54,356 nucleotides of DNA from a virus (Duplodnaviria > Caudoviricetes). Shown here in pieces: positions 387 to 43,668 of this stretch. Below the pieces are notes generated by a model. The model saw nothing but the letters and a program-made list of their open reading frames with translations. It searched no databases and was not told where the DNA came from. The position numbers and the translations under genes are program-made. The stretch is taken from the IMG/VR virus record IMGVR_UViG_3300035670_000272, positions 1 to 54,356 of that record; one strand, written 5' to 3'. Numbering within the stretch: position 1 is the stretch's first letter; each line of letters starts with the position of its first letter.

Positions 387-1223
387 GTGCAGTTCTATTT
401 CATGGCAGGGTTGCCGCGAGCGGGAACGACGCTACTGGCCTCTGTACTTAACCAAAATCCGGCTATCTATTGCTCACCCAATAGCCCTCTGTATGAGCAT
501 CTACGCGATATCGACTTGTCTAACTATGAGACATATCGCCTAGGCGTGATGCAACAGAACAAGCAAGCACTATTGCGTAATGCTATTCGCGCTTTCTACA
601 TGGATACTGACGCAAAGGTCGTGATAGATAAGTCACGCGTATGGGGATTGCCATACTACATTAACGTACTGCGGTACGCCCTAGAGTCTGACCCTAAAAT
701 CATTTGCCCGGTGCGCCCATTAGCGGAAGTAGTGGCGTCTTTTATTGTCAAGTGCCGAAACAATGAGGACAACTTCATAGATAGAAATATGCGACAAGAG
801 GACTTTCTCCCGCTGTGGCATAAGCCTATTGACGATGCTCGCGTGGACTGGCTACTGAGTCCGAACTCAATGCTTGGAACAGCGATGTTAAGCGTGCATA
901 ATGCTTTGCATGAAGACACTAAGCATATGTTTCATGTTGTCGAATACGATGAATTGGTAGACAATCCACATCGAGTTATCTCAGGAATCTATGACTTCCT
1001 TGGAGTAGAAGCCCACGATCACGAGTATTCCAGAATCGCGAATACTGAGCCATACCGCGATGCGGAGGTATTTGGAATACCAGATTTCCACGCGGTGCAT
1101 TACAAAATCCGACGTAGCACGATAGAGCCTGAAGCGGTGTTGTCTGATTATGCGCTGACCCGCTGCCAGTTAGAGGACTTTTGGACCGTGCAAGTCCAGC
1201 AACAAACGCTTGGCAAGGGTTAG
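387..1223 (+). CDS. Sulfotransferase family protein
   Basis: N-terminal 5'-PAPS-binding motif GLPRAGTTLL, IDKSR, and YDELV..P...I..IYDFLG. Confidence 0.85.
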   Translation: MQFYFMAGLPRAGTTLLASVLNQNPAIYCSPNSPLYEHLRDIDLSNYETYRLGVMQQNKQALLRNAIRAFYMDTDAKVVIDKSRVWGLPYYINVLRYALESDPKIICPVRPLAEVVASFIVKCRNNEDNFIDRNMRQEDFLPLWHKPIDDARVDWLLSPNSMLGTAMLSVHNALHEDTKHMFHVVEYDELVDNPHRVISGIYDFLGVEAHDHEYSRIANTEPYRDAEVFGIPDFHAVHYKIRRSTIEPEAVLSDYALTRCQLEDFWTVQVQQQTLGKG

Positions 1224-1231
1224 GTTTCTCT

Positions 1232-1909
1232 ATGAAGATTGCGCTAGTCACTTCTCTGTTCGGTGGGTATGACCCACTTGCCCCGCCGCCTGACGGTTTC
1301 GATGACGCCGTATGCGTGACTGATTCGCCGGATGATATCCCTGAAGGGTGGCGCGTCGTCATGGAGGCGCACCCTCTTGCCGACGATCCACGCCTGTTGA
1401 GTAAAGGCGCGAAGATGCAGCCGTGGCGTTACACGGACTGTGACGCGGCGATTTACCTTGACGCGAGCATCGAAGTAACGTCCCCAAATCTGCGCGCATG
1501 GGTAGAGCCACAACTAACCGCGAACGATCTCATGGTGTGGTCGCACCCGGAAGGCCGCACCTGTTACCGGGATGAGGCGGCGGTCTGTTGGGACTGGCCT
1601 AAGTATGCGCGGTACGACTTGCGCGGTCAGGTCGCAGCGTATGAAGCCGATGGGATGCCTAACGGTTGGGGGTTGTTCGCGTGCGGGATGATCGGCTGGC
1701 GGTTCACAGACGAGGCGCGTGCGTTCGGGGACATGTGGCTAGGGGAGCAATACAGGTGGTCGTGCCAGGATCAGGTCAGCCTCCCGTATCTGTTATGGCG
1801 TGAGGGTAAGTCGTTCGGTATCTGGCCTGCGAACCAGTACCAGAACCCGCACATCCGTATTCGTTGGGATCGGCGTGCCGTGGGCAACGGACCTACCGCA
1901 AGTCGCTAG
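1232..1909 (+). CDS. Glycosyltransferase-like protein (DUF616/TOD1-MUCI70-like)
   Basis: TSLFGGYD, IYLDAS and DQVSLPYLLW motifs; ATG at 1232 preferred over the longer ORF start. Confidence 0.7.
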   Translation: MKIALVTSLFGGYDPLAPPPDGFDDAVCVTDSPDDIPEGWRVVMEAHPLADDPRLLSKGAKMQPWRYTDCDAAIYLDASIEVTSPNLRAWVEPQLTANDLMVWSHPEGRTCYRDEAAVCWDWPKYARYDLRGQVAAYEADGMPNGWGLFACGMIGWRFTDEARAFGDMWLGEQYRWSCQDQVSLPYLLWREGKSFGIWPANQYQNPHIRIRWDRRAVGNGPTASR

Positions 1910-2007
1910 GATCGGCTTTGCGAACCGCTGCTAGTAGCCGTTCGCACCGCCGCTGGTCCCCCGACTTGTGCGGGGGCTAGCGTGCAACATGCGAGGAGGA
2001 TGACGGC

Positions 2008-2283
2008 ATGACCCACGCCGAAGTAGCCGTCCATGTGGATACTCACGACTCCATGTGCCCCTACGGGGGTTTCATGTCCAAGCCTGACGACTGCCGCCTT
2101 CCTGGCGGCATGAGTCTGTGTGACCTCATCCGTAACGTCAGGGCCGAGGAGCACAACTACATCATCTCGATCATTGAGGAACTGCCCTGCAAGTGCGACG
2201 AGGGCAAGGACTACTGCGACGGGCATACGGATGTAATCAATGCCATTGACGAGATTGACCCTTCGGACAAGCAAAGACCATGA
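2008..2283 (+). CDS. Small Cys/His protein (HDxxC...CxLIxxVR family)
   Basis: GAGGAGG RBS; THDSMC...CDLIRNVRAEE. Confidence 0.6.
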   Translation: MTHAEVAVHVDTHDSMCPYGGFMSKPDDCRLPGGMSLCDLIRNVRAEEHNYIISIIEELPCKCDEGKDYCDGHTDVINAIDEIDPSDKQRP

Positions 2284-2462
2284 CCCACGACCCGCTGTGC
2301 AAAGGCGACAAGATCGAGTACGCCTGCATGTGTCCTCTGATCGCCAGGGTCAGGGCTGACACTAGACGGGGCATCGTAGACGGGCTTAAGGCTGGCCTAC
2401 CTGAGTCGGACACTCGTGATACTGCCGTGAGTATCGCCACGTTCGCCGTGTCTCGTTACTGA
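2280..2462 (+). CDS. Small Cys/His protein (HDPLC...CxCxLIARVR family)
   Basis: ATGA overlap with previous gene; THDPLC...CMCPLIARVRAD. Confidence 0.6.
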   Translation: MTHDPLCKGDKIEYACMCPLIARVRADTRRGIVDGLKAGLPESDTRDTAVSIATFAVSRY

Positions 2463-2573
2463 CTCAGGAATAGCGGTACTGCTATTCCGGGTAAAACGGC
2501 ATGATCCTGCCGGAAACCTGCAAACGACGTGGCAAATGTACGGCTAATAATCTAGTTCGGAATGATCTTGCCG

Positions 2574-3227
2574 CTATTGCCACAGCAGATGATCGGGGTG
2601 CTTGTGCCCCCAATGGTGAGCGCACAGACTTTCGGAGTGCGGTTCGCCCCACGGCGTATCAGTCCACGGATTACAGAACCTAGCGGGTAGCACAGGCGTA
2701 TCCGGGTACTGCTGTTCCTTAATCCGTGTCAGCAACTTTGGCCCGGTCTGCCAGTCAATCGAACGAGTTTCCCTAGCGATGTTGCCGGGGATCGCGTCAA
2801 TCACCGCACGGATAAGAGGATGCTGCGGGGCGCTCAGAATCCAAGCGTTAGAGATCAGCCAGTTATCTATCTCGTTCGCTAGAAGAATGTCCATCTGCAT
2901 GAACTCGTCAGGGATCGGGCGCAAAGGTTCCATATCGGTATTCACATACAAACCGCCGTAACGGTAAAGCAGTTCGTAACCCAACAAGTCTGCTTGCGCT
3001 ACCTGAATGATGCTTGTCTGCTTTGCCGCTCCCGCGATGGGCGTCCACTCCGTACCGCAGTTCACGAACAACGATTCGTTAATGAGTGGTGGGCGGTTGT
3101 CGTAACCCCATTCGATCAGTTGCCAGTCGGGGTTCAGTTCCTTCCAACGCTCGCCGTACTGAACGTATTCGTTGGGCATTTCGCGTGGCCCGAACCACGC
3201 GCGGTGAATCAGTTTGGGCGTCGCCAC
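2574..3227 (-). CDS. Glycosyltransferase, GT32/OCH1-like (DxD sugar-binding)
   Basis: PKLIHRAWFG, LYRYGGLYVNTD, TGPKLLT; GTG start at 3227 inferred. Confidence 0.8.
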   Translation of the reverse strand: MATPKLIHRAWFGPREMPNEYVQYGERWKELNPDWQLIEWGYDNRPPLINESLFVNCGTEWTPIAGAAKQTSIIQVAQADLLGYELLYRYGGLYVNTDMEPLRPIPDEFMQMDILLANEIDNWLISNAWILSAPQHPLIRAVIDAIPGNIARETRSIDWQTGPKLLTRIKEQQYPDTPVLPARFCNPWTDTPWGEPHSESLCAHHWGHKHPDHLLWQ

Positions 3228-4225
3228 GCGACACCCTCGTTCTCCCGATACCAATCGACAGTTCGCTTGATACCTTCCGGCAGAGGCACAAACTCCGTGT
3301 GGTTCATGCCGATCGCGAGCAGGGTAGTAACGTCAGCCGAGACTACGGTTCCCATCTGACGGACGGTGCGGCGAACGTCGATAGGCCGAAGGCCGGGGTT
3401 CGCGCGCGTAACAGCATCGACAACGACACGCAGGTCGTACTCCGTACTCATTGGGCCACCATGCGGTTCCCCTGCCCTCATAGGGACCGCTTCGATCGTT
3501 GCCCCAGGCACGTTCTTCTGGACCTCTTCGGCTACCTTCAGGACCGTCGTAGGCTCTGCGTTGCCCACATCGACAGGATGGTCCGGTACGACACCTTCGC
3601 TGGCCTTCTCCAATGCCCGCACGAACACCTTCGCGACATCGCCCACGAACACGCTATCGCTGATCTGAGTGCCGCCACCGTACAGGCGCATCGGGTCACC
3701 CGACAGCGCGGAGCACACGAACGACGGCACGATCTTCCTGACCTTGCTGCTGCCGTACGGAGCCGGGGTGGACTGGCGCGGACCGTATGCGTTCATGGGC
3801 CGGACGCTCGTAACGCGTAGGCCGCGATCCTCGCGGTACATATTCACGAACGCTTCTGCCGCTGACTTGGTAATGCAGTATGTGCCGCGAGCGATGTTGG
3901 CGTTACCGACTGCTGCGAACACGACGGGCAGATCGTAACGTGATGCTGACTCGAACACGTTGAGGGTGCCGATGATGTTGGTCTCTGCGGCTGGCCCTGG
4001 GTTGTCGATGGTCTCGACTGTCCCGAGTACGGCTGCCATGTGGATGATGCCGTCTACGTGCGCGGCGAGTTCCTGAACGATGGTGGCGTCCCGCACATCA
4101 CCGAGCATCGAATCGCCACCGCGACCCTTGTGGTCAAGCACGAGAGCCTCATGCCCTCGGCGCTGGATCTCTTCGACGATGTAACCGCCGATGAAGCCGT
4201 TACCGCCCGTGACTCCGATCTTCAC
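3209..4225 (-). CDS. NAD-dependent epimerase/dehydratase (extended SDR)
   Basis: TGGNGFIG, HMAA, YCITK, NAYGP. Confidence 0.9.
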   Translation of the reverse strand: MKIGVTGGNGFIGGYIVEEIQRRGHEALVLDHKGRGGDSMLGDVRDATIVQELAAHVDGIIHMAAVLGTVETIDNPGPAAETNIIGTLNVFESASRYDLPVVFAAVGNANIARGTYCITKSAAEAFVNMYREDRGLRVTSVRPMNAYGPRQSTPAPYGSSKVRKIVPSFVCSALSGDPMRLYGGGTQISDSVFVGDVAKVFVRALEKASEGVVPDHPVDVGNAEPTTVLKVAEEVQKNVPGATIEAVPMRAGEPHGGPMSTEYDLRVVVDAVTRANPGLRPIDVRRTVRQMGTVVSADVTTLLAIGMNHTEFVPLPEGIKRTVDWYRENEGVAWRRPN

Positions 4226-15645: not shown

Positions 15646-16575
15646 GTGCGTTGGCTTGTTACTGGCGGTGCGGGCTACATCGGTTCTCACGTGCTGCGCT
15701 CGCTCATCGCGGCAGGCCACGATGCGGTCGTCATCGACAACCTATCGAACGGTAACAGGAGGCGCGTACCTCCGACTGTCAGGTTCGTCGACGGCGACAT
15801 ACGGGACGGCGACCTGCTGCTCGACGCTATCGAGGATGTCGATGGCGTTATTCATCTCGCGGGTCTGAAGTCGGTAGCCGAATCTGTAGATAAGCCGCTC
15901 GCCTATTACGACACGAACGTCACCGGGACACTCAGCGTCCTCCGCGCGATGCGTTACCGGAACGTGTGCCGCATCCTGTTCTCTAGCACCGCGTCCCTGT
16001 ACGCGCCAAGCGATCTCCCGATCAAGGAGATCAACGCGACCTACCTGTCGTCTCCGTATGCGGCAAGTAAGTTCATGGCGGAACGGCTCATCGCCGATAA
16101 TGCGCGAGCGACAGGTGGCGAGTACGCGATCCTGCGTTACTTCAACGTCGCTGGTGCCGTGTCACCCGATCTGCGCGACGACTCGCAAGACAACCTGCTG
16201 CCGCGACTGACGCGCGCGCTCCGCAACGGTGAAGCGCCGGAGATCTTCGGTGACGACTACCCGACGCGGGACGGGACATGCGTGAGGGATTACGTCCATG
16301 TGGCTGATATCGCCGACGCGCACGTTCTCGTCGCTGAACGGCTCGGCCAACTGGACGAGCAGGTCTACAACGTCGGCACAGGACGCGGCGTAACGGTTCG
16401 CGAGATGGTGTCTGCCGCGAGCCGCGCTGTCGGATGGCAGATCGCGCCCGTCATTCGGGACCGCAGGCCGGGAGATAGCGCTTCGACGATCGCGGACGTT
16501 ACGCGCATCGAGAAGGAACTAGGGTTCAAGGCAAAGTTCGACATCGAGCAGATCGTGGAGTGCGTGAAAGATTAG
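15646..16575 (+). CDS. galE: UDP-glucose 4-epimerase
   Basis: TGGAGYIGSH, SVAESV..PL.YY, YAASK, LRYFNVAGA, PTRDGTCVRDYVHV. Confidence 0.9.
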   Translation: MRWLVTGGAGYIGSHVLRSLIAAGHDAVVIDNLSNGNRRRVPPTVRFVDGDIRDGDLLLDAIEDVDGVIHLAGLKSVAESVDKPLAYYDTNVTGTLSVLRAMRYRNVCRILFSSTASLYAPSDLPIKEINATYLSSPYAASKFMAERLIADNARATGGEYAILRYFNVAGAVSPDLRDDSQDNLLPRLTRALRNGEAPEIFGDDYPTRDGTCVRDYVHVADIADAHVLVAERLGQLDEQVYNVGTGRGVTVREMVSAASRAVGWQIAPVIRDRRPGDSASTIADVTRIEKELGFKAKFDIEQIVECVKD

Positions 16576-22255: not shown

Positions 22256-23311
22256 ATGTCGGATCTTAGCGTCGCGTTCATCAGCGGTGACTGGAACAAT
22301 CAGTCAGATCCGCCAGAACCTAACGGATGCGCCTACTATCGCCAGGTGCTCCCCTGCCAACTGCTTCAGGAGCAGGGTATCGACGCGCTGGTGGGGCAGC
22401 CGCGACCGCACGAACCGATGGGCATTGGTCTCGCCAAGGACGACGGCGCGTTATTCGGGTTCGACATTAACGTCTACAAACTCATGATGCACGCGAGCGT
22501 CCCACAACTGTTCCGTACGATGCAGTCGAAAGGCCAGACGGTCGCTATCGACATTGACGACTTTCATTTCGATCTGCATGAAGAGAACATCGCGTATGCG
22601 GCGACGAACCCACACACCAACCCGACTAATAACAGGATGTGGTACGAGATCGGGATTCGGCAGGCCGACTTCATCACCGTATCGACCGCGTTCCTAGCAG
22701 ACTTCTATGGTCGGCGCTGCCGCGATGTACGCCTCGTCAGGAACGCCGTCGAGACTGACCGCTTCATGCCGGTCGAGCAGCCAGAGTCGCCGACGTTCGG
22801 GTGGCTCGGCGGGACACTCTGGCGTTCTGGCGATATCGAGTTGCTGAACGAGTGGCTGCCGGGCTTCGTGAAACAACACAAGATCAAGGTCCAGCACGCC
22901 GGGCACATCCCCGGCGACCCTAAGCACTTCGCCGTACGCGCGGGGTTGAAGCGTGTCGAGACGACGCCGATGCAGACGATCAGTAACGTGCCGAAGATGA
23001 TGACGTTCCATGTCGGGCTAGTCCCGCTCGCCCGTAACGGCTTCAATGAGGCTAAGAGTTACCTGAAGGGTCTGGAGTACGCGGCTGCTGGCATCCCGTT
23101 CATTGCTACCCCGACAGAGGAATACAGGGTCCTAGCGGCTGCGGGAGTCGGGAGGCTGGCGTCGTCCCCGGATGAGTGGATTGACCACGCTACGGCGCTC
23201 CTAGACCCGTCTACGCGCATCGCAGAGGCCGAACGGAACCGGGCCATCGTCAAGGAGCAGTTCGATATCTCGGGAATGGGGCAGGTATGGGCTACCGCGA
23301 TCACTTCCTGA
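22256..23311 (+). CDS. Glycosyltransferase (GT-B, GT4-like)
   Basis: DIDDFHF, GLVPL...FNEAKSYLKGLEYAAAGIP. Confidence 0.85.
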   Translation: MSDLSVAFISGDWNNQSDPPEPNGCAYYRQVLPCQLLQEQGIDALVGQPRPHEPMGIGLAKDDGALFGFDINVYKLMMHASVPQLFRTMQSKGQTVAIDIDDFHFDLHEENIAYAATNPHTNPTNNRMWYEIGIRQADFITVSTAFLADFYGRRCRDVRLVRNAVETDRFMPVEQPESPTFGWLGGTLWRSGDIELLNEWLPGFVKQHKIKVQHAGHIPGDPKHFAVRAGLKRVETTPMQTISNVPKMMTFHVGLVPLARNGFNEAKSYLKGLEYAAAGIPFIATPTEEYRVLAAAGVGRLASSPDEWIDHATALLDPSTRIAEAERNRAIVKEQFDISGMGQVWATAITS

Positions 23312-24825: not shown

Positions 24826-25839
24826 TTAGATAGCCAGCCACTCGGGATGAGCCAGCGTCCACTTGATCGTTCTCTCCAAAGACTCTTCCAGCGACAGCGG
24901 GGCCGACCACCCAGCGGCGGCAATCTTCGACCCATCCAGCGCGTAACGCAGATCGTGTCCCGGGCGCGACGAGTGAAAGTCCACCAGTTCGTAACGCAGA
25001 GGCTTACCGATGTAGGCGGCGATCAACTCCGCCATCTCTAGGTTGCTCATCTCCCGTTCCCCCACGACATGCCACTTCGCGGGAGCACGCCGCTCCGCAT
25101 ACGTCGGCGCATCCTCACCCAACGCGAACAGCAACGCGTCCGCTTGATTCCGCGCGTGCAGGTAGAACCGGGAACCAACATGACCCGTAGCCGAAGCATG
25201 AATCGGGACAGTCTCCCCAGCGAGAATCCGCTTCATCACCATCGGCACAAACTTCTCAGGGTCCTGCGACTCCCCAATAATGTTCATCGTGTTCGTGATA
25301 ATCACCGGCACCCCATAGGTACGCCAGTACGAGTAAGCGATCGACTCCTGAGCAGCCTTACTAGCCGAATAAGGATTCGACGGGTAATACTGATCGACCC
25401 ATTCCCGGTGAGCAGTACCCGCAGGAGCAGGCCCATACACCTCATCCGTCGAAACATGCAGGAACCGCTCAACCGGGTAAGACCGCGCATAGTCCAGCAT
25501 GTTCGTCACAAGAGCAACGTTATTCTGGATGAACGCGGCAGGCTCCGCGATACTCCGATCCACGTGCGACTCAGATGCCACATTCAGGACGTAGTCGATA
25601 CCGCCTATCTCCGATGCCAGGACAGGGGACACAGGAGCGGTCAAGTCGTGAGTGATAACACGCGTCCGCGTGTAGGACCCATCCACGCCACCAACCGCCA
25701 GCCGAATCCGGTCCGTAAGCCCACGGTGGCGGAAACTCACGAGGCAGACTACCTCGTAGTCTGTCGTGGTGAGTAGGTGCCGCAGGACATGGGAGCCTAC
25801 GAAGCCGCTCGCCCCGGTGAGGAGGACACGCTTGCTCAT
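24826..25839 (-). CDS. rmlB: dTDP-glucose 4,6-dehydratase
   Basis: ASESHVDRSI, HVSTDEVYG, PYSASKA, RPGHDLRYALD. Confidence 0.85.
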   Translation of the reverse strand: MSKRVLLTGASGFVGSHVLRHLLTTTDYEVVCLVSFRHRGLTDRIRLAVGGVDGSYTRTRVITHDLTAPVSPVLASEIGGIDYVLNVASESHVDRSIAEPAAFIQNNVALVTNMLDYARSYPVERFLHVSTDEVYGPAPAGTAHREWVDQYYPSNPYSASKAAQESIAYSYWRTYGVPVIITNTMNIIGESQDPEKFVPMVMKRILAGETVPIHASATGHVGSRFYLHARNQADALLFALGEDAPTYAERRAPAKWHVVGEREMSNLEMAELIAAYIGKPLRYELVDFHSSRPGHDLRYALDGSKIAAAGWSAPLSLEESLERTIKWTLAHPEWLAI

Positions 25840-25840
25840 G

Positions 25841-27409
25841 TCAGATCCATCCACTCGTCTGAGTAATGCTCAGCGGAGGCGCGAGCATCGGTTCTTTACT
25901 TGGTGGCTCGAATAACGCCAACAGTATCGCCTCGGCACGGTCAGGGCTGCTAACGCCACGCCGCTTCATATCGGCTTTCGCTTCGATCTGGATGCGTCCG
26001 CTGCTGTTGGAACGGTACGTGGGTGCCGTCAGTTGCGCGATCTCCTTCTTGCCTACCGCGAGCGACAACTCTTGCCTGCCGTCTTCGTCTGGCTGGATGA
26101 GCGTGCGCATGTTCCACCACATCTCGGCACGCTGATTAGCGAACTTGCCGTTATCGTACGCGCGTTCGGCCACGTTCACGGCGACGATCTCTGCGTTATG
26201 CCGGGACTCCTTGCCCCATTCGTCGAGGATGCTGGCGACGCCCCAGCCGACGCCGATGCTGTCGATCTTCACACGTACGGCTTCCTGTACGCCGTGGAGC
26301 GCGTGGTACTCCTGCGCTTTGTGGATCTCGCTGAGTACCTGACCGGCGACCGTGACCGCGTTATCGTTATGGCTGGATGCGTGTTGCACATACGCGCACA
26401 TGCCGTCTGCTCGCGCGATCACGAACTCGTCTCCGCCATCTGCCGCGACATCGACCCCGATACGGACGCGCCCGACCCCTGCCGGTTCTGCGACTACGGC
26501 GGATTCCAGCCAGTCGATAGGCAGCGTGACGTTCGTGGTGGTGCGCGGGAAGCGCGCGTGAACGCGTGCCTGAACGAACGGGGACTCCGCACCGAACTCG
26601 CGGATAACGTCCCGCACCCAGGTCTCGTCAACCAGGTTCTTGGCCCAATCCCCCACGGGCTCGCCTGTGAAGTTGGGTGTGGAGTAGGCGTCGATGGGGA
26701 TGGTGTTGTAGAGATCGCTGTTGCAGGCTCTCTCGAACCATGACCCGACGTTATCTGTCGGAGGGTTACCGAGCAGTAGCAGACGAGTGTGCCCACCGGT
26801 CATCAGCGCTTCGAGAGCGTTACCGATGATGGGGCTGATGCCTCCGGCTTCATCGACGACGATGAGCAGATTGTCTGAGTGGATACCCTGAACCGCTGTC
26901 TCATTATGGTCAGCCGGGGAGAACCCATCGGCGACAACGATGTCGTTGATCTTCCATTCGGTCGTGAGGACTTCGCCGGGAAGATGGTGGGCCGTATGCA
27001 GCCTGCGGATATGGGGCCAGAGGATTCCCCGCACCTGACGGAACGTGGTCGCTGTCGTCACGACACGGACCTTCTCGGCGGGGTGTACGGCGCACCACCA
27101 AGCGATAGCGCGTGCCGCGATGTGTGACTTTCCGGGCGCGTGGCATGCGGGGACGGCTGTGCGCTTATTGTCGCGCACCGAGTTCAGGATCTCTACCTGC
27201 TTGCTCCATACGTCTTCGCCGAGGCCATCGGTCACGAAAGCGACGGGATCGTTGCGGTAGCGCGCCCACTTAGGGTCCACGCCTTCGCGCAGTTCGTTCA
27301 CTAACGCCAGCAGTCCTGCTTCGGACATACGTTCGAGTGTCGCTAACGCTTTCTCCGCTGGTGCGTCACGGAGAATCTGCTCAGGCGTCATCCTCGTCAT
27401 CCGTGTCAT
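25841..27409 (-). CDS. terL: Terminase large subunit
   Basis: Walker A HAPGKS, Walker B LLIVVDEA, LGNP, nuclease IGVDVA and SPDRAEA. Confidence 0.9.
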   Translation of the reverse strand: MTRMTRMTPEQILRDAPAEKALATLERMSEAGLLALVNELREGVDPKWARYRNDPVAFVTDGLGEDVWSKQVEILNSVRDNKRTAVPACHAPGKSHIAARAIAWWCAVHPAEKVRVVTTATTFRQVRGILWPHIRRLHTAHHLPGEVLTTEWKINDIVVADGFSPADHNETAVQGIHSDNLLIVVDEAGGISPIIGNALEALMTGGHTRLLLLGNPPTDNVGSWFERACNSDLYNTIPIDAYSTPNFTGEPVGDWAKNLVDETWVRDVIREFGAESPFVQARVHARFPRTTTNVTLPIDWLESAVVAEPAGVGRVRIGVDVAADGGDEFVIARADGMCAYVQHASSHNDNAVTVAGQVLSEIHKAQEYHALHGVQEAVRVKIDSIGVGWGVASILDEWGKESRHNAEIVAVNVAERAYDNGKFANQRAEMWWNMRTLIQPDEDGRQELSLAVGKKEIAQLTAPTYRSNSSGRIQIEAKADMKRRGVSSPDRAEAILLALFEPPSKEPMLAPPLSITQTSGWI

Positions 27410-28948: not shown

Positions 28949-29692
28949 TTACCTCCTAGGGTTCAGCAACTTCACTTCGAGATAACCGTCCGGTCTGCGC
29001 TTGCTGATACGCACGTACTGAGGCCATTCGCTCAGCAGATAGTGGACATCTCGCTCGTTCTCCTCTGTTCTGTCGTGATTCTGCGAACCTCCTGACCCGC
29101 TACGCATCGGAGCGGCTTTGGCGCACATCATGTCGAACCGGATTACTTCACCATCGGCGACATAACGCATGAGTGACTTCTCGTAGTCTTGCTTGTAGTT
29201 GAGGCGCATGGTCTCTGAACGCCGGTTCAGGAAACCGTGGAGGTGCCCGATGCAGAAGAGCAGTCCGCTGTTGATGCGGGGCTTCATGAAGTAAGCGTTA
29301 GCGACCGGGTAGACGCCCCACATCGTGGCACTCCCGCGAGCCATGATCCTGAACGTGTCGGCGAATGTCTTGTCGAGATCGCTGACCGTCGCTAGGTCAG
29401 ATCCGTTGAGCATCTGAACGGCGAGAATGTCGTCGTCTAGTTCCACGATGGGAGTGTTCTCGTCGTAGTAACGGTTGATGGCGTTGCGGTTATTGGCGAG
29501 CCCCGTGCCGCCTGTCTCGATCGCGCCGTACAGAGAATCGTCCACTTGGTCGCGGTACTGCTGTTCCTGCCCTGGCGTGACGAACACGCGAATCTTCTCG
29601 GCGGGTACGCCCCCATCGCGCAGGCACTTCAGCGTCCGCTCGGTTAACTGTTGTGGCCGCGCGTGGCTGACGATCGCTACCTCGTAGGTCAC
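28949..29692 (-). CDS. TET-associated glycosyltransferase (TAGT/GREB1-like)
   Basis: IVSHAR, RNAI, ELDDDI, WGVYPVANAYFM, KQDYEKSL; directly downstream of the TET/JBP gene. Confidence 0.75.
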   Translation of the reverse strand: MTYEVAIVSHARPQQLTERTLKCLRDGGVPAEKIRVFVTPGQEQQYRDQVDDSLYGAIETGGTGLANNRNAINRYYDENTPIVELDDDILAVQMLNGSDLATVSDLDKTFADTFRIMARGSATMWGVYPVANAYFMKPRINSGLLFCIGHLHGFLNRRSETMRLNYKQDYEKSLMRYVADGEVIRFDMMCAKAAPMRSGSGGSQNHDRTEENERDVHYLLSEWPQYVRISKRRPDGYLEVKLLNPRR

Positions 29693-30594
29693 TTCGCCTT
29701 TCCCGTCATTCCCTTCATCTTGCTAATGCTCTTCGCCATCTCCTCCGTAACGAACGGGCGCTCTCCGCGAATCGCAGAAGCCATGTTGTCCTCGCGCTCG
29801 GTCCGCGTCTCCTGAGCCCTGGCTGTCTCGATCGCGTAAGTGAAGCAGTCCTTCATCCCGCGCAACGCGTAATACACGACGCTGTAACGGTAGCCGTCCT
29901 TCGCGGTCTGCGTCATGGGAGTGACGCCATGAACGAGGCGGTAGCCGCAGAAGTAGAGCGCGTAACCGTCACGGGCGGCGCAAGTGACATCGTATTCGGG
30001 GATGTGCAGATACCCGCCAGTAACATTCCTGCGGAGGACCGGCATCGCCGACCATGTATCGAAGTTGAATCCGTCGCGGTGATACGGGAGGGTGCTTGTC
30101 TTGTTGATGACGCCGCTAGTCCAGAGCGCATCTTTCGCCATACGCCAGTCGTCCGCGACCTCGATAATGGTGCGCTCGTCGCGGTCGTGAACCTCCGGGA
30201 ACACCTCACGCAACTGGTCCGCCAACGCGTACGCTGTCGTGACGATAACGGTATGTGCCTCGGGCTCTTCCTGAGCGAGCGTGTAGGGGCGGCAGGAATC
30301 CCGCTGTGCGAGCGGCTTACGCGGCGACATGCCGAACGTCCGCGACACGTTAGTCATACCGCTGCCGGTGCGGACAGTCTTCCCGTACTTCACCTTCAGA
30401 ACGGCGCGACGCAGGTGACTGATCGTGTCCCGCTCCAACGGCAGATAAGCGAACACCGGCTCGTTTGTTTCCGCGTCGGCGATAACGCACGCTTCCGTTA
30501 TGTTCGGTTCGATTTCCGGTACGGTCTCGCCTAGGTACTTGTCGGCTTCTTGCTTGTCGAGTACCCGTTCACGCTTCAGGATTCGATATTCCAT
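29689..30594 (-). CDS. TET/JBP-family 2-oxoglutarate/Fe(II) dioxygenase
   Basis: HxD (YHRDGFN), distal His (VHGVTP), RxS (YRYSVVYY). Confidence 0.8.
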   Translation of the reverse strand: MEYRILKRERVLDKQEADKYLGETVPEIEPNITEACVIADAETNEPVFAYLPLERDTISHLRRAVLKVKYGKTVRTGSGMTNVSRTFGMSPRKPLAQRDSCRPYTLAQEEPEAHTVIVTTAYALADQLREVFPEVHDRDERTIIEVADDWRMAKDALWTSGVINKTSTLPYHRDGFNFDTWSAMPVLRRNVTGGYLHIPEYDVTCAARDGYALYFCGYRLVHGVTPMTQTAKDGYRYSVVYYALRGMKDCFTYAIETARAQETRTEREDNMASAIRGERPFVTEEMAKSISKMKGMTGKAK

Positions 30595-38612: not shown

Positions 38613-38657
38613 GCGAATACCCTTCTCTCGTAGGCTAACGATCGCTAGCCAAGGCGA

Positions 38658-38690
38658 GGCAGGAGGGAAAGGGAAGGGAACCCTCCTGCC
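38658..38690 (-). terminator. Hairpin downstream of the DUF932 gene
   Basis: GGCAGGAGGG / CCCTCCTGCC 10-bp stem with a 13-nt loop. Confidence 0.6.
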
Positions 38691-38706
38691 CCACGTTGGT
38701 GAGCGA

Positions 38707-39705
38707 TCACGCAGATAGCAGCGAGTACGCCTTCTGCTTGATCGGTTCGACAGCGCCCAGGAAGACGCGCTCGGCGCGCGCAACATCAGCGTCGCGCTTG
38801 CCTGCCTTCACGGGCTTCACCCAGTCAGCCCACTCGGTGATGGCGTTGAACGCTGCCCAGCGAGTTCCGGCGACGTTATGCTGGGTCGGGGCGAGCCAAA
38901 GACCGGCAACCTGCTCGCGGGTCTCCTCGACGCGCATCATCTGGAGGCTGCTCATGTCCTTACGCATCGGGAACAACTTCTCCGTGAACGTGTCGAACTC
39001 ACGGCGCGACATCTCCTGCGACACGAGTTCATCAACCGCAGTCTGGAACGCGTCGGCGTAATCGACGACGAGCCCCATCGCCTCGCGCGCCTGCTGGATC
39101 TTGCCGCGAATGTTGGTCGTGTGCTTCATCGACCACTTGCTGACCGCGCTCTGCAGACCGAACTGAACGGTGTTCGCGCAGACAGGCCGGACCGCAGTGA
39201 CGAACGCGGTGAAAGCCTTGCTCCCGTCGTGGCTAGTTGAGCAGACGAGGTACAGGTCTACGGTGTCCTGCCCTCCGGCGATGCTGATGTGCTGCGGCAT
39301 CTTCATGGATACGAACACCTGAGTCCCGCCGCGCAGGGAACCGGCAGTCTCGAAGACCGCGCCGGACTCGTCAACGAGAGTGTTCAGGAAGTCGAACGCT
39401 TCCTTGTTCTGGATGACGGTGTATTGCGATCCGACGACACCGAGACCTTGGAGTCCCAACTTCGGGTGGTCGCGGTAAGTCATGAAGCGATCGGGCGCGC
39501 TCACCATAACGACGCCGTTCTCGGTGAGTACCGGGGTCTGGACCGGATCGTCGGACTTCACGACCTCCCAATCCAACTGCGAGAGCCGGAGCGCGTCCTC
39601 AACTGTCTGCGCGCCGTCCGTGATAACGCCTAGGTGATGCCAGGGAACCTCGCGGTTGCTGAAGAACGCGGCGCTCCCGTCTTTGAATGTCTCTACTGCG
39701 TGCAT
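38707..39705 (-). CDS. DUF932 / phage-plasmid-like protein (TIGR03299-like)
   Basis: PWHHLG, L.WEV, LGVVG..Y..IQN.EAF, FETAGSL.GG, SHDGS, RPVCANT, HT; ATG at 39705. Confidence 0.85.
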   Translation of the reverse strand: MHAVETFKDGSAAFFSNREVPWHHLGVITDGAQTVEDALRLSQLDWEVVKSDDPVQTPVLTENGVVMVSAPDRFMTYRDHPKLGLQGLGVVGSQYTVIQNKEAFDFLNTLVDESGAVFETAGSLRGGTQVFVSMKMPQHISIAGGQDTVDLYLVCSTSHDGSKAFTAFVTAVRPVCANTVQFGLQSAVSKWSMKHTTNIRGKIQQAREAMGLVVDYADAFQTAVDELVSQEMSRREFDTFTEKLFPMRKDMSSLQMMRVEETREQVAGLWLAPTQHNVAGTRWAAFNAITEWADWVKPVKAGKRDADVARAERVFLGAVEPIKQKAYSLLSA

Positions 39706-39732
39706 GTGCGTACCCTTCCGGTTAGGTCTGAC

Positions 39733-39783
39733 GATCTCGTCAGCGGCACTATTCAGCACCGGACCCCTCTCGGGGTTTCGATC
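39733..39783 (-). ncRNA. Type II hammerhead ribozyme HHR1
   Basis: GATC-GAAA-CCCC GAGA GGGG-TC^-CGGTGCT GAAT AGTGCCG-CTGACGA-GATC; predicted cleavage after 39762. Confidence 0.85.
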
Positions 39784-39965
39784 TAGTCAGTACGTTGATC
39801 GCAAGCGTGGCGAACCTTGAAGATCGGTCCGTCAGCCGCGAGTTCTGCGAGGCGTCGCATCCCCTCTTCGGTCGCGATGTTGATTGCCTCATATTCGGCA
39901 ATCGTTATTGGCTTGTATTTCTCAGCAGAAGACGTAGACAGTTCCGTCGAAGTCTCCATCGTCAT
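39783..39965 (-). CDS. Hypothetical protein
   Basis: GAGGAGG RBS; its TAG overlaps HHR1. Confidence 0.55.
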   Translation of the reverse strand: MTMETSTELSTSSAEKYKPITIAEYEAINIATEEGMRRLAELAADGPIFKVRHACDQRTD

Positions 39966-40194
39966 CCTCCTCGGGGTCGTGAATCTGATACTCGTCGTGG
40001 TAGTCGTCCCACTTAGCGGTCATTTCGTGAACGTTGTTCTCAATGAAGCGGTATCCGAGCCGCGTCTGCCAGTAATCAGCAGAGGCAGCGCTGAACAGGA
40101 TCGGCTTGTCGAGATCCGGCAGCGCATAAAGCGCGTCGATAAGTTCCCGAACCGTGAGTGTTGCCTTGTTCGCTTCGACATTCGTCGTTGCCAT
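39922..40194 (-). CDS. Hypothetical acidic protein
   Basis: GGAGG RBS; LTVRELIDAL..L pattern. Confidence 0.65.
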   Translation of the reverse strand: MATTNVEANKATLTVRELIDALYALPDLDKPILFSAASADYWQTRLGYRFIENNVHEMTAKWDDYHDEYQIHDPEEDDDGDFDGTVYVFC

Positions 40195-40298
40195 TACCGC
40201 ATACCTCCCTCAACCCATCCCGCGATCCCCATGAACGCGAGCATTACTAGTGTGAAGAGTGTTGCTGCGGCGATCTCGCCGCGTTGCGTGAGCCTCAC
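40194..40298 (-). CDS. Small single-TM peptide (34 aa, not in ORF track)
   Basis: GTG; RLTQRGEIAAATLFTLVMLAFMGIAGWVEGG; GAGGAGG RBS. Confidence 0.55.
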   Translation of the reverse strand: MRLTQRGEIAAATLFTLVMLAFMGIAGWVEGGMR

Positions 40299-40504
40299 GA
40301 TGCCTCCTCTGTCGGCGTGATCGGTGCCCCGAGCCATTCCTCAACGGCTTTGATGTGGAATAACTCGGGTGCGTTACTGAACTGCGTGATCTGAATGTGC
40401 TGAAGCGGGTCCCACCCGATCCGTTCCAACTCGTTCAGGGTGTTCCTGAGCGAGAAGATCGTCGGTCGGCGCAGGATGTAACCCGTCTGCAATCTTTCGA
40501 TCAT
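40295..40504 (-). CDS. Hypothetical protein
   Basis: First ORF after HHR2; GGAAGGGGAAG RBS. Confidence 0.65.
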   Translation of the reverse strand: MIERLQTGYILRRPTIFSLRNTLNELERIGWDPLQHIQITQFSNAPELFHIKAVEEWLGAPITPTEEAS

Positions 40505-40526
40505 GCGCTTCCCCTTCCGTTAGCCT

Positions 40527-40583
40527 GTCTCTTCAGGCGTAGGAGGCTATCCCTACGCGACCCCGGCGAACCGGGGTTTCGAC
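40527..40583 (-). ncRNA. Type II hammerhead ribozyme HHR2
   Basis: GTC-GAAA-CCCCGG TTCG CCGGGG-TC^-GCGTAGG GATAGCCT CCTACGC-CTGAAGA-GAC; tail AGGCTA pairs with loop TAGCCT; cleavage after 40559. Confidence 0.92.
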
Positions 40584-40867
40584 TAGAACGGCGGAGCGGA
40601 CTTTTCTCTGGCGGATTCCTCTCCGGCCTCCCAACCTTTCGACCAGCCGCGATCGAACTCGGCGAACTCGGCGTCCCAAATGAGTTCACGGATCTTCTGA
40701 AGGCTCTCCTTGTCTACCCCCAACTCGCGGAAGTAGTGGATGAGCGCGTGGTACATGACGCGGCTCTCGTTCGAGGCACCCTTGGTCGGGTACTGCTCAA
40801 CGAAGCGCCACGCGCCAGCGATAGCCATGTCGATCGTCTCGGTCAGCGGCGTGCGTGTCTCTGTCAT
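40583..40867 (-). CDS. Hypothetical protein
   Basis: GAAAGGGAAG RBS; MTETRTPLTE...; its TAG overlaps HHR2. Confidence 0.65.
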   Translation of the reverse strand: MTETRTPLTETIDMAIAGAWRFVEQYPTKGASNESRVMYHALIHYFRELGVDKESLQKIRELIWDAEFAEFDRGWSKGWEAGEESAREKSAPPF

Positions 40868-40889
40868 TGGCTTCCCTTTCGTCTCGCCT

Positions 40890-40942
40890 GTCTCTTCAGC
40901 GCCAGGAGGCGAACCCTGACGGACCCCTCTCGGGGTTTCGAC
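40890..40942 (-). ncRNA. Type II hammerhead ribozyme HHR3
   Basis: GTC-GAAA-CCCC GAGA GGGG-TC^-CGTCAGG GTTCGCCT CCTGGCG-CTGAAGA-GAC; tail AGGCGA pairs with TCGCCT; cleavage after 40922. Confidence 0.92.
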
Positions 40943-41244
40943 TAGTCGCGCGTCGCGTAGATACGGATGACGCGGCGCTCGCCGTACTCGTTCTCGTTGC
41001 CGTACTCGTAGGACCAGATCTCCGTGTCGCCGAAGTGGTCTACCTCGACTGCCTCGGGGTTGCTCTCTAGTGCCTTCAGGATCTTGTTGAGCCGGATCTT
41101 GACGGTGCGGTCGCTCACCGGCGTGTAGTGATTGACTTCGCCGTGCTCTGGCGCGGCGTAGGTGCCGCCGCAACCGCAGGCGCATCCGGTCTTGCCGCAG
41201 TACGTCTTCTGGATGTTCTTGAATGAGATACCGATGGTGGTCAT
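40942..41244 (-). CDS. Hypothetical protein with YCGKTGCACGCGG motif
   Basis: GAAAGGGAAG RBS; its TAG overlaps HHR3. Confidence 0.7.
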   Translation of the reverse strand: MTTIGISFKNIQKTYCGKTGCACGCGGTYAAPEHGEVNHYTPVSDRTVKIRLNKILKALESNPEAVEVDHFGDTEIWSYEYGNENEYGERRVIRIYATRD

Positions 41245-41267
41245 GTGCTTCCCTTTCGTCTGGCCCT

Positions 41268-41322
41268 GTCTCGTCAGCGGTAGGCGGGCAGTTCTACCGG
41301 ACCCCGTTTCCGGGGTTTCGAC
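41268..41322 (-). ncRNA. Type II hammerhead ribozyme HHR4
   Basis: GTC-GAAA-CCCCG GAAA CGGGG-TC^-CGGTAG AACTGCCCGC CTACCG-CTGACGA-GAC; tail GGGC pairs with GCCC; cleavage after 41300. Confidence 0.92.
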
Positions 41323-41606
41323 TAATAGCCGAGTCGCTTCAGGTCAGCGTTCGCATACTTGCCGAGAACGCGCGACGTTGCCGCGACGTAGGTGTGTCCG
41401 TGAATGTCGGTCTTGATAACCGGGTCGGTGTACACGACCTGAGCGTTGATCGCGTTCACGAGTCGCTGCGCGGTTCGCTTGTTACGCAGGACGTAGCCGT
41501 GGGTGCTTGGCCTATCGACTGGCGCATCCCAGGTTGAGTAGACGCGCCACTCGCCACCGGGATCGTCGTCTGTCTCGCACTCGTACATATCGGCTCGGAC
41601 CTTCAT
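41322..41606 (-). CDS. Hypothetical protein
   Basis: GAAAGGGAAG RBS; its TAG overlaps HHR4. Confidence 0.7.
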   Translation of the reverse strand: MKVRADMYECETDDDPGGEWRVYSTWDAPVDRPSTHGYVLRNKRTAQRLVNAINAQVVYTDPVIKTDIHGHTYVAATSRVLGKYANADLKRLGY

Positions 41607-41628
41607 GTGCTTCCCTTTCGTTACACCT

Positions 41629-41681
41629 GTCTCGTCAGCACGGGTCGGTGATTTCCCGTGGACCCCTCTCGGGGTTTCGAC
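41629..41681 (-). ncRNA. Type II hammerhead ribozyme HHR5
   Basis: GTC-GAAA-CCCC GAGA GGGG-TC^-CACGGG AAATCACCGA CCCGTG-CTGACGA-GAC; tail GGTG pairs with CACC; cleavage after 41661. Confidence 0.92.
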
Positions 41682-41884
41682 TATTCAGCACCGCACTCGC
41701 AGCCTCGCTTGTTGCAGCGGTTGGGCGCGGCCTGCCGGAAGACCCGCTCGCCGCAGAGCGAGCAGCAGGTCATCGCGGCGATGCAGGACTTCTGTTCGGT
41801 CGGGCAAGTGATGACCCGTACCCATGCGCCGTACTCGTTGCGGTACTCGAAGTCCAGCGTATGCAGGTTGGTCGCGGTCATCAT
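41681..41884 (-). CDS. Cys-rich hypothetical protein
   Basis: ATGA overlap with the upstream ORF; its TAG overlaps HHR5. Confidence 0.55.
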   Translation of the reverse strand: MMTATNLHTLDFEYRNEYGAWVRVITCPTEQKSCIAAMTCCSLCGERVFRQAAPNRCNKRGCECGAE

Positions 41885-42165
41885 GCCGTCACCGACCGTG
41901 TATCGAACGCGAACATGACCGCGTACTGGGCATCTGTCTTCGTTCGGCAAGTCGCTATCACGGCACCGTTGATGATCGCGTCCCAGGAGCCGACATCGTT
42001 CGGCTGGACCGATGCCGCGATGGGTCGGTTGTCGCGACCAATGACGTCGTAGCCGTACACGGCGATCAGTCGCTTGCCACGACGCTCGGTGCGCATCAGG
42101 TAGCCGCGCCAGATCAGGTCGCCGTACTTGTCGGTCTTCGGCTGAAGTTCAGCAAGAAGGCTCAT
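41881..42165 (-). CDS. Hypothetical protein
   Basis: GAAAGGGAAG RBS; MSLLAELQPK... Confidence 0.65.
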   Translation of the reverse strand: MSLLAELQPKTDKYGDLIWRGYLMRTERRGKRLIAVYGYDVIGRDNRPIAASVQPNDVGSWDAIINGAVIATCRTKTDAQYAVMFAFDTRSVTA

Positions 42166-42190
42166 TGTTCTTCCCTTTCGTTGGTCGCCT

Positions 42191-42243
42191 GTCTCTTCAG
42201 GTGCGGGAGGCGATCTCCGCACGACCCCTCGCGGGGTTTCGAC
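42191..42243 (-). ncRNA. Type II hammerhead ribozyme HHR6
   Basis: GTC-GAAA-CCCC GCGA GGGG-TC^-GTGCGG AGATCGCCTC CCGCAC-CTGAAGA-GAC; tail AGGCGA pairs with TCGCCT; cleavage after 42223. Confidence 0.92.
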
Positions 42244-42494
42244 TAGGAGTTGCTTCGGATAGGCTCGGCCATCTCCGGGTAGATCATCGCGGCGTACTCC
42301 TTCGCTTGCCGCAGCGTCGCGAACTGCTCTCCCAGCGGCTGCTCGTGCCAGTAGCCGCGACCGTCGCGGTACTGCGACACAAGCGCGTAGCCGGAGCGAC
42401 CATCGCGGTGGTCCATTCGGATGACGAACTTCTCTCCGCTATCACGTGAGAACTCGTAGCGGTACTCGAAGCCGTTCTTGATCCACATGTCCAT
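42243..42494 (-). CDS. Hypothetical protein
   Basis: GAAAGGGAAG RBS; FATLRQAKEYA; its TAG overlaps HHR6. Confidence 0.7.
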   Translation of the reverse strand: MDMWIKNGFEYRYEFSRDSGEKFVIRMDHRDGRSGYALVSQYRDGRGYWHEQPLGEQFATLRQAKEYAAMIYPEMAEPIRSNS

Positions 42495-42518
42495 CGTTCT
42501 TCCCTTTCTTCTTGACCT

Positions 42519-42573
42519 GTCTCTTCAGGCACGGTAGGTCAGTTCCGCGCGACCCGCCGAAGCGGGTTTCGAC
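42519..42573 (-). ncRNA. Type II hammerhead ribozyme HHR7
   Basis: GTC-GAAA-CCCGC TTCG GCGGG-TC^-GCGCGG AACTGACCTA CCGTGC-CTGAAGA-GAC; tail AGGTCA pairs with TGACCT; cleavage after 42551. Confidence 0.92.
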
Positions 42574-42848
42574 TAACGCACGATCGACGCGTCGGCCCAA
42601 GTAGCGCTCTCCGTGATGCGCCCGGTGGCGTTACCGATGGAATTCTGGATGCCGAGGCGGATCTCGTGGATCGTCTCGCCGTCCGCCTTTGAGTAGTCGT
42701 AGCAGCGGTCGGTGCGGAACTCCATGTTGATCTCGTCTGACTCGGCGATAGCGTCCGCGAGCAGACGCACAAGCCGAGCGGCTTCCTTGCGGTTCATCGT
42801 GAAGTAAGCGACGTTCCGGTCGGTCATGGCGGTGTATGTCGTGGCCAT
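42573..42848 (-). CDS. Hypothetical protein
   Basis: GAAAGGGAAGG RBS; its TAG overlaps HHR7. Confidence 0.7.
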   Translation of the reverse strand: MATTYTAMTDRNVAYFTMNRKEAARLVRLLADAIAESDEINMEFRTDRCYDYSKADGETIHEIRLGIQNSIGNATGRITESATWADASIVR

Positions 42849-42870
42849 TGTGTTTCCTTCCCTTTCGCGT

Positions 42871-42929
42871 GTCTCTTCAGCGTTAGGACGCGACCCCTAA
42901 CGGACCTCCCCCGAAGGGGAGGTTTCGAC
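42871..42929 (-). ncRNA. Type II hammerhead ribozyme HHR8
   Basis: GTC-GAAA-CCTCCCC TTCG GGGGAGG-TC^-CGTTAGG GGTCGCGT CCTAACG-CTGAAGA-GAC; tail ACGCGA pairs with TCGCGT; cleavage after 42903. Confidence 0.92.
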
Positions 42930-43355
42930 TGGGAAGTCAACTGTCGCTTAGGGTTACTGCGGCTCGTCTTGCCCCACTTCCCGCCCTGCCGCTTGCTCTG
43001 ACGCGTTACGCGGTGATCGCATCGCAACATCGGGCGCTGGTGAGGTAGGTCCCTTCCGGGTCTCCCCTCGCACGGATCGGGCTGGTTCACTAGGCGGTTC
43101 CGGTCGCGCGCTGGCCCTTCTCTGCTCAGCCATTCGCCGGAGGCGGTGCCCCGATCCGCTCTTCAGTTGTAGCACGATCTTACCGTGTCAGACGGTAGTT
43201 CGGGGACTTTTGAGGAAACTAATTTGGGCGAGTTTCCGGGGTCAGAATCCAGGCCCCCACCAGGCCCCCGCCCAAGGGTCCTAGACGCTTACAGGTCGAT
43301 ACAGGTCGATCCAGGGGCAGCCCTACGCGGGTCGGCTCCGGGAAGCCCGATCGCG

Positions 43356-43363
43356 TGTAGAAT
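43356..43363 (+). promoter_or_regulatory. Candidate -10 element (TAGAAT) for the tail operon
   Basis: GTGTAGAAT in the divergent intergenic region upstream of the tail genes. Confidence 0.45.
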
Positions 43364-43455
43364 GGTGGGAGCAACGTGTCCATCCGTGACCCCGCTCTCG
43401 CCGTGGCTCGCGTGGCCCCAGGGAAGCCGGGGTTGCCGTGCGCCCAGGGAGCGGA

Positions 43456-43668
43456 ATGGCTTCGTACCGAGTCCTCGTAGGAATCGACTACGCAGGGAAG
43501 CGCGCTGAGGCTGGCGCTATCGTTAATGACCTACCCGCGAAGAGCGTTACTTGGCTGCTCGCGCAGAACCTCATCGAGACCGTAGATAACGCTTCAGACG
43601 ATCAGCCTGTAACACCAAAGACTACTGCTGCGCGTGAGCCAAAGTCTCCCAGCAAGGGAGGCGAATGA
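43456..43668 (+). CDS. Small protein preceding the tail tube genes
   Basis: MASYRVLVGIDY...WLL.Q.LIE; AGGGAG RBS. Confidence 0.65.
   Translation: MASYRVLVGIDYAGKRAEAGAIVNDLPAKSVTWLLAQNLIETVDNASDDQPVTPKTTAAREPKSPSKGGE

Follow-up and report, generated by a model that had tools for sequence, protein, structure and literature searches.

Eight predicted type II hammerhead ribozymes at the gene boundaries of an early operon in a complete metagenomic phage genome

Natural type II hammerhead ribozymes with a pseudoknot that joins loop I to the tail immediately 3' of stem II were described by Perreault et al. in 2011, forming clusters that flank single genes in prophages and that were proposed to process a polycistronic transcript into single-gene mRNAs, circular or spliced products being considered as an alternative of which none was detected (data not shown there) (PMC3088659). 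These clustered hammerheads were all reported to cleave in vitro, three tandem arrangements among them, and one triple arrangement to cleave in E. coli, a pseudoknotted type II construct reaching a rate of more than 1.2 per minute (PMC3088659). In Desulfovibrio vulgaris, three type II hammerheads located beside phage-like genes were found to cleave in vivo, both fragments having been captured by cyPhyRNA-seq (PMC8782182). A review from 2017 describes hammerheads flanking small non-conserved open reading frames (ORFs) of unknown function and calls their role open, and a review from 2019 repeats the idea of processing and differential stability. Here we analysed the virus record IMGVR_UViG_3300035670_000272 (Duplodnaviria; Caudoviricetes), the 54,356 bases of which are the window of this study and which, with direct terminal repeats and a completeness rating of 100%, represents a whole virus genome. 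We identified eight type II hammerheads, all on the minus strand, in an array (39726-42931) comprising the first 3.2 kb of a leftward early operon. As in the prophage clusters of Perreault et al., several same-strand hammerheads bound units of one, one, two, one, one, one and four ORFs, here with eight copies in one complete metagenomic phage genome; the overlap of the stop codon with stem II and the constant leader of 54-57 nucleotides (nt) described below were not found stated in the available portions of that report (PMC3088659). The D. vulgaris hammerheads resemble the array in being type II and in adjoining phage-like genes, but they lie at three separate loci and not in an array, and their ends were mapped as linear fragments, circles being outside that study's question (PMC8782182). 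Both the arrangement of hammerhead-flanked genes and the idea of circles are already in print, the new element being one further, large and tidy example, which as it stands does not add a new principle. With the role of prokaryotic and phage hammerheads being called open in reviews, the array is a clean test case owing to its eight copies in one complete genome, a fixed register to the stop codon and the ribosome-binding site and many natural variants, and it could be used to measure the effect of ribozyme processing on the life and translation of bacterial mRNA.

In all eight copies the elements follow one order, namely the first stem II strand (3-4 nt), GAAA, stem III (closed), GUC, stem I (closed), CUGA(A/C)GA and the second stem II strand, forming a three-way junction in which loops close stems I and III and stem II is open. 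Each of them has the conserved type II core, made up of CUGANGA, GAAA, a pair A15.1-U16.1 and the cleavage triplet GUH, and a strict pattern returns exactly these eight matches compared to 0.00 expected from 100 dinucleotide shuffles. Below, C17 is the nucleotide after which the cut is predicted, the Rfam scores refer to family RF02276 with its gathering threshold of 37 bits, and R1 is a model built from the eight copies.

42863..42931, minus strand: HH1, C17 at 42903; Rfam RF02276 44.8 bits, R1 68.5 bits; predicted to remove the 5' leader
42511..42575, minus strand: HH2, C17 at 42551; R1 67.3 bits, unreported by Rfam
42183..42245, minus strand: HH3, C17 at 42223; Rfam 31.0 bits (below the gathering score), R1 81.4 bits
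41621..41683, minus strand: HH4, C17 at 41661; Rfam 30.8 bits, R1 79.0 bits
41260..41324, minus strand: HH5, C17 at 41300; R1 69.6 bits, unreported by Rfam
40882..40944, minus strand: HH6, C17 at 40922; Rfam 39.8 bits, R1 83.9 bits
40519..40585, minus strand: HH7, C17 at 40559; Rfam 43.7 bits, R1 75.8 bits
39726..39784, minus strand: HH8, a variant before the DUF932 gene, C17 at 39762; R1 57.3 bits

Scanning the whole window with RF02276 places two of the eight copies above the gathering score, and a local scan reports five, three of them above the gathering score and two at approximately 31 bits, leaving three unreported. Standard base pairs occupy 93.4% of the pair cells over the eight copies compared to 75.1 +/- 2.1 in shuffles, a value reached by none of 500 shuffles, and the mean column identity between the copies is only 69%. 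Twelve of 21 pairs have changed on both sides, these being distributed over stems I, II and III and the pseudoknot, in which five of six pairs covary. Covariation of this strength supports that the copies are real ribozymes under selection and rules out inactive or chance motifs. Judged from these features, self-cleavage is predicted after C17 at all eight sites. As had been claimed in the original prediction of this array, stem II is GUC/GAC in seven copies and the pseudoknot lies wholly in the 5' part of the downstream product, which applies to HH1 to HH7. HH8 has a 4-bp stem II, GAUC/GAUC, which can be extended by five more pairs past a 2-nt bulge, and contains no pseudoknot; this form also precedes the DUF932 homologue in the related contigs L011, L043 and L073. 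Within HH8 (39726-39795, minus strand) the strand extending stem II could pair instead with the first bases of the catalytic core, an alternative pairing that might form a switch. Over the whole genome R1 detected no further convincing copy, the best other match having 10.9 bits (E 0.79). A loose regular expression gave 11 raw matches on the minus strand, two of which are nested in true sites, and the match at 43156-43240 was rejected as having neither R1 nor strict-pattern support.

The distances from C17 to C17 amount to 352, 328, 562, 361, 378, 363 and 797 nt, reproducing exactly those given before, and they delimit seven units.

42551..42902, minus strand: U1, 352 nt; one ORF 42573-42848, 91 amino acids (aa); no Pfam, PHROG or NCBIfam match
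42223..42550, minus strand: U2, 328 nt; one ORF 42243-42494, 83 aa
41661..42222, minus strand: U3, 562 nt; two ORFs, 41881-42165 (94 aa) and 41681-41884 (67 aa, Cys-rich), with ATGA overlap
41300..41660, minus strand: U4, 361 nt; one ORF 41322-41606, 94 aa
40922..41299, minus strand: U5, 378 nt; one ORF 40942-41244, 100 aa
40559..40921, minus strand: U6, 363 nt; one ORF 40583-40867, 94 aa
39762..40558, minus strand: U7, 797 nt; ORFs 40295-40504, 40194-40298 (small hydrophobic peptide), 39922-40194 and 39783-39965

The five units of 328-378 nt (U1, U2, U4, U5 and U6) do hold one ORF each, of 83-100 aa, and U3 and U7 hold two and four ORFs, respectively. Each intergenic gap is formed by one fixed module of approximately 90 nt, which occupies every boundary between the first six cistronic blocks as well as the one before the DUF932 gene. 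It starts from a UAG that overlaps stem II and continues with the type II hammerhead and its pseudoknot tail, after which come a conserved ribosome-binding site and the AUG. In seven of the eight copies, the stem II strand takes its first base from the UAG stop codon of the upstream ORF. The ribosome-binding site is purine-rich and lies 22-28 nt past stem II, few bases after the pseudoknot tail, and the predicted 5'-OH end precedes the AUG by 54-57 nt in each of the eight copies. The stem I hairpin (-6.3 to -11.3 kcal/mol) has this predicted 5'-OH nucleotide as its first paired base, leaving no single-stranded overhang. At the predicted 3' end, one nucleotide follows the stem III hairpin (-8.3 to -15.7 kcal/mol), and the 3' untranslated tail of the upstream product measures 20-24 nt past its stop codon.

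The array ORFs are coding as judged from their pattern of substitutions. Ten ORFs entered this comparison, in which gapped matches were dropped and four ORFs had no ungapped homologue; changes at the third codon position dominate in all six others, U4 for instance having 26/23/79 changes at the three codon positions and the second U3 ORF 7/5/31, and the GC content at third codon positions is 0.85 for two array ORFs. For ten of the eleven array ORFs, Pfam, PHROGs and NCBIfam returned nothing or one sub-threshold match only. The eleventh, the U6 ORF, matched Pfam DUF6892 at 19.5 bits, below the cut-off of 24.6, and an atlas look-up of one array ORF gave unnamed viral clusters only, so that no array ORF belongs to a recognisable family. 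At the start of the array we observed six leader bases just upstream of HH1 (42931-42936, minus strand) which are the exact complement of the core of the U1 ribosome-binding site (approximately 42860-42855). The minimum-energy fold pairs these six bases with this ribosome-binding site (z-score -2.0), and in this model cleavage by HH1 might release the first ribosome-binding site.

The same design is found in relatives. A pattern derived from these ribozymes matches in 83 stretches of viral contigs, R1 yields 184 matches over the 80 viral loci searched, and a site scanner run on 84 sources reports 188 sites from 74 of them, the eight of this phage all being recovered. Collapsing identical sequences resulted in 98 units and 155 distinct hammerhead copies for comparison. 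The units span 231-3799 nt with quartiles of 357, 468 and 722 nt and with neither a gap nor a ceiling; the commonest length class is 300-399 nt (32 units), 67 units contain one ORF, and unit length rises with the number of ORFs. A 3-bp stem II is present in 129 of the 155 copies and GUC/GAC in 127, the seed pattern forcing at least one such copy per locus, and a Shine-Dalgarno-like motif lies at most 40 nt away in 149. Two related arrays with four hammerheads each were observed in Actinomycetota, L088 (425-2144) in an Acidimicrobiaceae metagenome-assembled genome (MAG) and L090 (5487-7709) in a Solirubrobacterales MAG, the 261-kb contig of L090 probably being a prophage. A megablast search of the array region against phage records gave no match, and a 30-nt blastn match of one hammerhead in an Achromobacter phage tail gene was rejected as chance.

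From the motifs and their covariation, their placement relative to stop and start codons, the recurrence of the design in relatives and the coding ORFs we infer cleavage in vivo, linear products and a direction of the effect on stability and translation. This supports, with a probability of roughly two in three, a model according to which co-transcriptional cleavage splits the early transcript into linear mono- or oligocistronic mRNAs. Neither a terminator-like site nor a promoter-like consensus was found on the minus strand within the array, which fits a single transcript. As the polymerase passes a module, the ribozyme would fold and cut after C17. The downstream product would start directly with the paired bases of the stem I hairpin, the first of them bearing the 5'-OH, and carry the near-constant leader of 54-57 nt, and the upstream product would end in the stem III hairpin plus one nucleotide with a 2',3'-cyclic phosphate. 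Likely gains would be the insulation of the early genes from their neighbours, a uniform translation start and ends that are poorly handled by common exonucleases and 5'-end-dependent RNases. Of the two outcomes that the original prediction had offered, mRNAs capped by a 5'-OH hairpin are the one favoured by sequence and literature, while circular mRNAs find no specific support.

An expression gain from hairpin ends would be in line with two other systems, the engineered RiboJ and the ribozyme in a chrysovirus 5' untranslated region (UTR). RiboJ, which originates from a satellite-RNA hammerhead of type III, serves as a single copy per gene, whereas our array is a natural one of type II hammerheads that recur at every gene boundary. 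As predicted for the array modules, the RiboJ ribozyme, placed upstream of a ribosome-binding site, cuts off the upstream context and leaves behind a terminal hairpin, and in E. coli it raised mRNA approximately 2-fold and protein 2-10-fold, which its authors credit to the terminal hairpin (PMC6206723). For the chrysovirus, ribozyme cleavage in the 5' UTR was reported to be needed for translation, and in the linear RNA viruses with 5' UTR ribozymes self-cleavage of the leader serves translation and not rolling-circle replication, as assumed for the array; these are, however, eukaryotic RNA viruses with cap-independent translation and mostly type I hammerheads (PMC13725137).

Several points weigh against linear, stabilised mRNAs. 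The phage is known from DNA alone, the identical sequence being present in subsurface metagenome runs of one study, none of which is recorded as RNA, and both cleavage and the form of the products are predicted. By analogy to the glmS ribozyme, the 5'-OH product of which is degraded by RNase J1 in B. subtilis according to a review, a 5'-OH may signal decay and not protection. R1 finds no such ribozymes in the three closest cultured Arthrobacter phages, an empty result that shows little by itself but implies that the design is not needed by this phage lineage generally. Finally, stem II can be made to form between the two ends of one unit at a cost of 0.9-5.7 kcal/mol, compared to 2.4-5.7 kcal/mol in cis; this went against our expectation that closing the loop would keep the ends from reassembling, and in these models nearest-neighbour thermodynamics would not forbid reassembly, being neutral to slightly favourable for circles. 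None of the seven circular minimum-energy folds contains stem II. As the energy model ignores tertiary contacts, neither the comparison of costs nor the circular folds discriminates between the outcomes.

The products might alternatively be linear and short-lived, the exposed 5'-OH ends being attacked by a host RNase J-type 5' exonuclease, so that early messages become shorter-lived and the switch from early to middle expression becomes sharper. We regard this as unlikely, yet it fares best among the alternatives. RNase J occurs in the actinobacterial phylum, to which the host probably belongs, and the restriction of the array to the first 3.2 kb of the early operon agrees with such a timer, as does the fate of the glmS product. 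On the other hand, the 5'-OH is base paired in a stable hairpin without an overhang, which should hinder a 5' exonuclease, and the conserved strong ribosome-binding site together with the constant leader points to selection for expression. RiboJ, moreover, was reported to raise and not to lower expression (PMC6206723).

A further alternative, put forward in the original prediction, is that the ends of a single-gene unit are joined by the reverse reaction or by a host RtcB-type ligase, generating a translatable, exonuclease-proof circle. That a share of the single-gene RNAs is closed in this way in the infected cell appears very improbable to us. The geometry on which the proposal relied is right for U1 to U6, in which the 5' end is the 3' part of one hammerhead and the 3' end the 5' part of the next, with complementary stem II halves capable of rebuilding one ribozyme, and the 797-nt unit U7, which had been named as the exception, indeed has mismatched stem II halves and does not allow this. 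Such geometry is, however, automatic for any array of same-type hammerheads. Own ends are complementary in 84 of the 98 related units as well, mostly by default, and the informative cases are the 31 units with a differing stem II in one flanking copy, of which 17 match, some by G-U only, and 14 mismatch, the latter including lengths of 245-382 nt. Changes in stem II are compensated inside one hammerhead and not across a unit; stem II thus covaries within the ribozyme, as cleavage requires, and is not matched across the unit, as self-ligation would require. The viroid-like size of the units, taken before as a sign of circles, results from ORFs of 83-100 aa plus a module of approximately 80 nt and loses its meaning in view of the related units, the lengths of which run from 231 to 3799 nt without a gap and track gene content. 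HH1 and HH8, in addition, bound products that cannot be small circles, and a stem II of 3 bp would favour product release.

Avsunviroidae viroids and retrozymes resemble the units in being unit-length RNAs of similar size with 5'-OH and cyclic phosphate ends and with ribozyme halves at these ends, but their units are identical repeats, viroids are noncoding, their ribozymes are type I or III and host ligases circularise them (PMC7761336, PMC6765202). Viroid-like circles are also highly self-paired, with 73% in one rod-like cluster of a metatranscriptome survey available as a preprint. The units described here carry different protein-coding genes, each with its own ORF cluster and not as tandem copies or multimers of one sequence, and the single-gene units show no excess structure: linear folds of U1, U2, U4, U5 and U6 compared to 50 dinucleotide shuffles per unit (25 for U7) resulted in z-scores of +0.99, -0.56, -1.18, -0.42 and -0.51, so that the excess self-complementarity of viroid-like RNAs is absent from these five, U3 (-2.0) and U7 (-3.4) being more structured. 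In circular folds, these five single-gene units are 57-64% paired. Stem III forms in all seven linear unit folds and stem I in most of them, and the unit folds showed no competing structure by which the ribozyme of a circle would be switched off. In contrast to viroids, a circle modelled in this way would retain a fast ribozyme in intact form and would be cut open again by it.

What speaks for circles, apart from the complementary stem II halves and an own-end cost no higher than in cis, comes mainly from other systems. Engineered hammerhead constructs circularised RNAs of 83-103 nt in E. coli with an efficiency of 6.7-9.5% (PMC11592204). RtcB was not found in the complete phage genome or in five related partial contigs, but the actinobacterial genome used as a control, that of Corynebacterium glutamicum, does contain the family, so a host ligase could be available. 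The survey mentioned above describes an apparent circle of 286 nt that has a type II hammerhead in just one of its polarities, is 57% paired, a value at the lower end of the range of the units, and has 13 matching CRISPR spacers from 10 metagenomes. This apparent circle resembles one of the units but could also be an assembly effect. That some viroid-like circles with one type II hammerhead and CRISPR matches are phage gene cassettes would follow from the same proposal and is held by us to be just as doubtful. Perreault et al. detected no circular or spliced product in their clusters (PMC3088659), and no later report of circular RNAs from phage hammerhead arrays was found in the literature collection searched. 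If circles were to form, they would be, to our knowledge, the first natural circular mRNA of a DNA phage, and some viroid-like circles would need to be re-read; since stem I differs between the copies, any back-junction would be diagnostic.

Equally improbable is, in our view, that the modules are kept mainly as recombination boundaries for swapping, losing or gaining cassettes between phages, with RNA cleavage being secondary. The related contigs L011, L014, L028, L073 and L080 hold the same small ORF clusters between hammerheads in other combinations and orders; the U2 ORF, which stands alone here, shares a unit with another ORF in L014, and the U4 and U5 clusters occur in reversed order in L028. 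Mapping of contigs from four DNA runs revealed that a minor contig of X1, possibly the run of the source sample, and an X6 contig from another study join across 329 nt matching U2 (42180-42512), and six of eight other joints have at least one end within approximately 10 nt of a hammerhead module, with joints near 40945, 41684, 42157 and 42856. These joints hint at gain and loss of cassettes at the DNA level, and the phage has genes for both a Rad52-family annealing protein and an exonuclease of the PD-(D/E)XK type. The joints derive, however, from short contigs placed at 85% likeness, the shorter side of a joint covering 24-45 nt, and may stem from other organisms or repeats. The compensatory changes in stems and pseudoknot reflect selection on RNA structure and not on DNA similarity alone, and the copies share a mean column identity of only 69%. 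A role in recombination is compatible with the processing of linear mRNAs, and the modules may additionally act as recombination boundaries.

The array stands at the head of a longer operon in a genome of 59% GC, the plus strand of which carries the structural and lysis genes. The leftward operon begins at approximately 42,930 with eleven small ORFs, followed by the DUF932/TIGR03299 gene and a helix-turn-helix protein and further on by the Rad52-family annealing protein, the PD-(D/E)XK exonuclease, a replication initiator, RusA and HNH; it also holds a TET/JBP-like oxygenase and its glycosyltransferase and then both subunits of the terminase. The genome also contains genes of the WhiB-like and GP88 families, one each, and the terminase has relatives in Arthrobacter phages with approximately 52% identity, the closest cultured phages by this protein. 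Taken together, these genes suggest that the host is probably an actinobacterium. The array is flanked by the following features.

38707..39705, minus strand: DUF932 / TIGR03299 phage/plasmid-like protein, first gene past the array (Pfam PF06067 2.6e-63, TIGR03299 2.2e-73), beginning the long 3' product of HH8
42932..43664, no strand assigned: divergent non-coding region, which has to contain the promoter of early leftward transcription and the leader that HH1 would remove

A sigma-70-type promoter consensus was not found in the divergent region 42932..43664. Directly after the DUF932 gene, we observed a near-perfect long hairpin (38638-38712) with weak microRNA-like Rfam matches on both strands and a terminator-like site on the minus strand, which may stop or pause the early transcript. 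The TET/JBP-like oxygenase and the associated glycosyltransferase are located at 28949-30594, a combination that suggests hypermodified DNA bases. Nucleotide-sugar epimerases, glycosyltransferases and a sulfotransferase are encoded at 387-4225, 15646-16575, 22256-23311 and 24826-25854.

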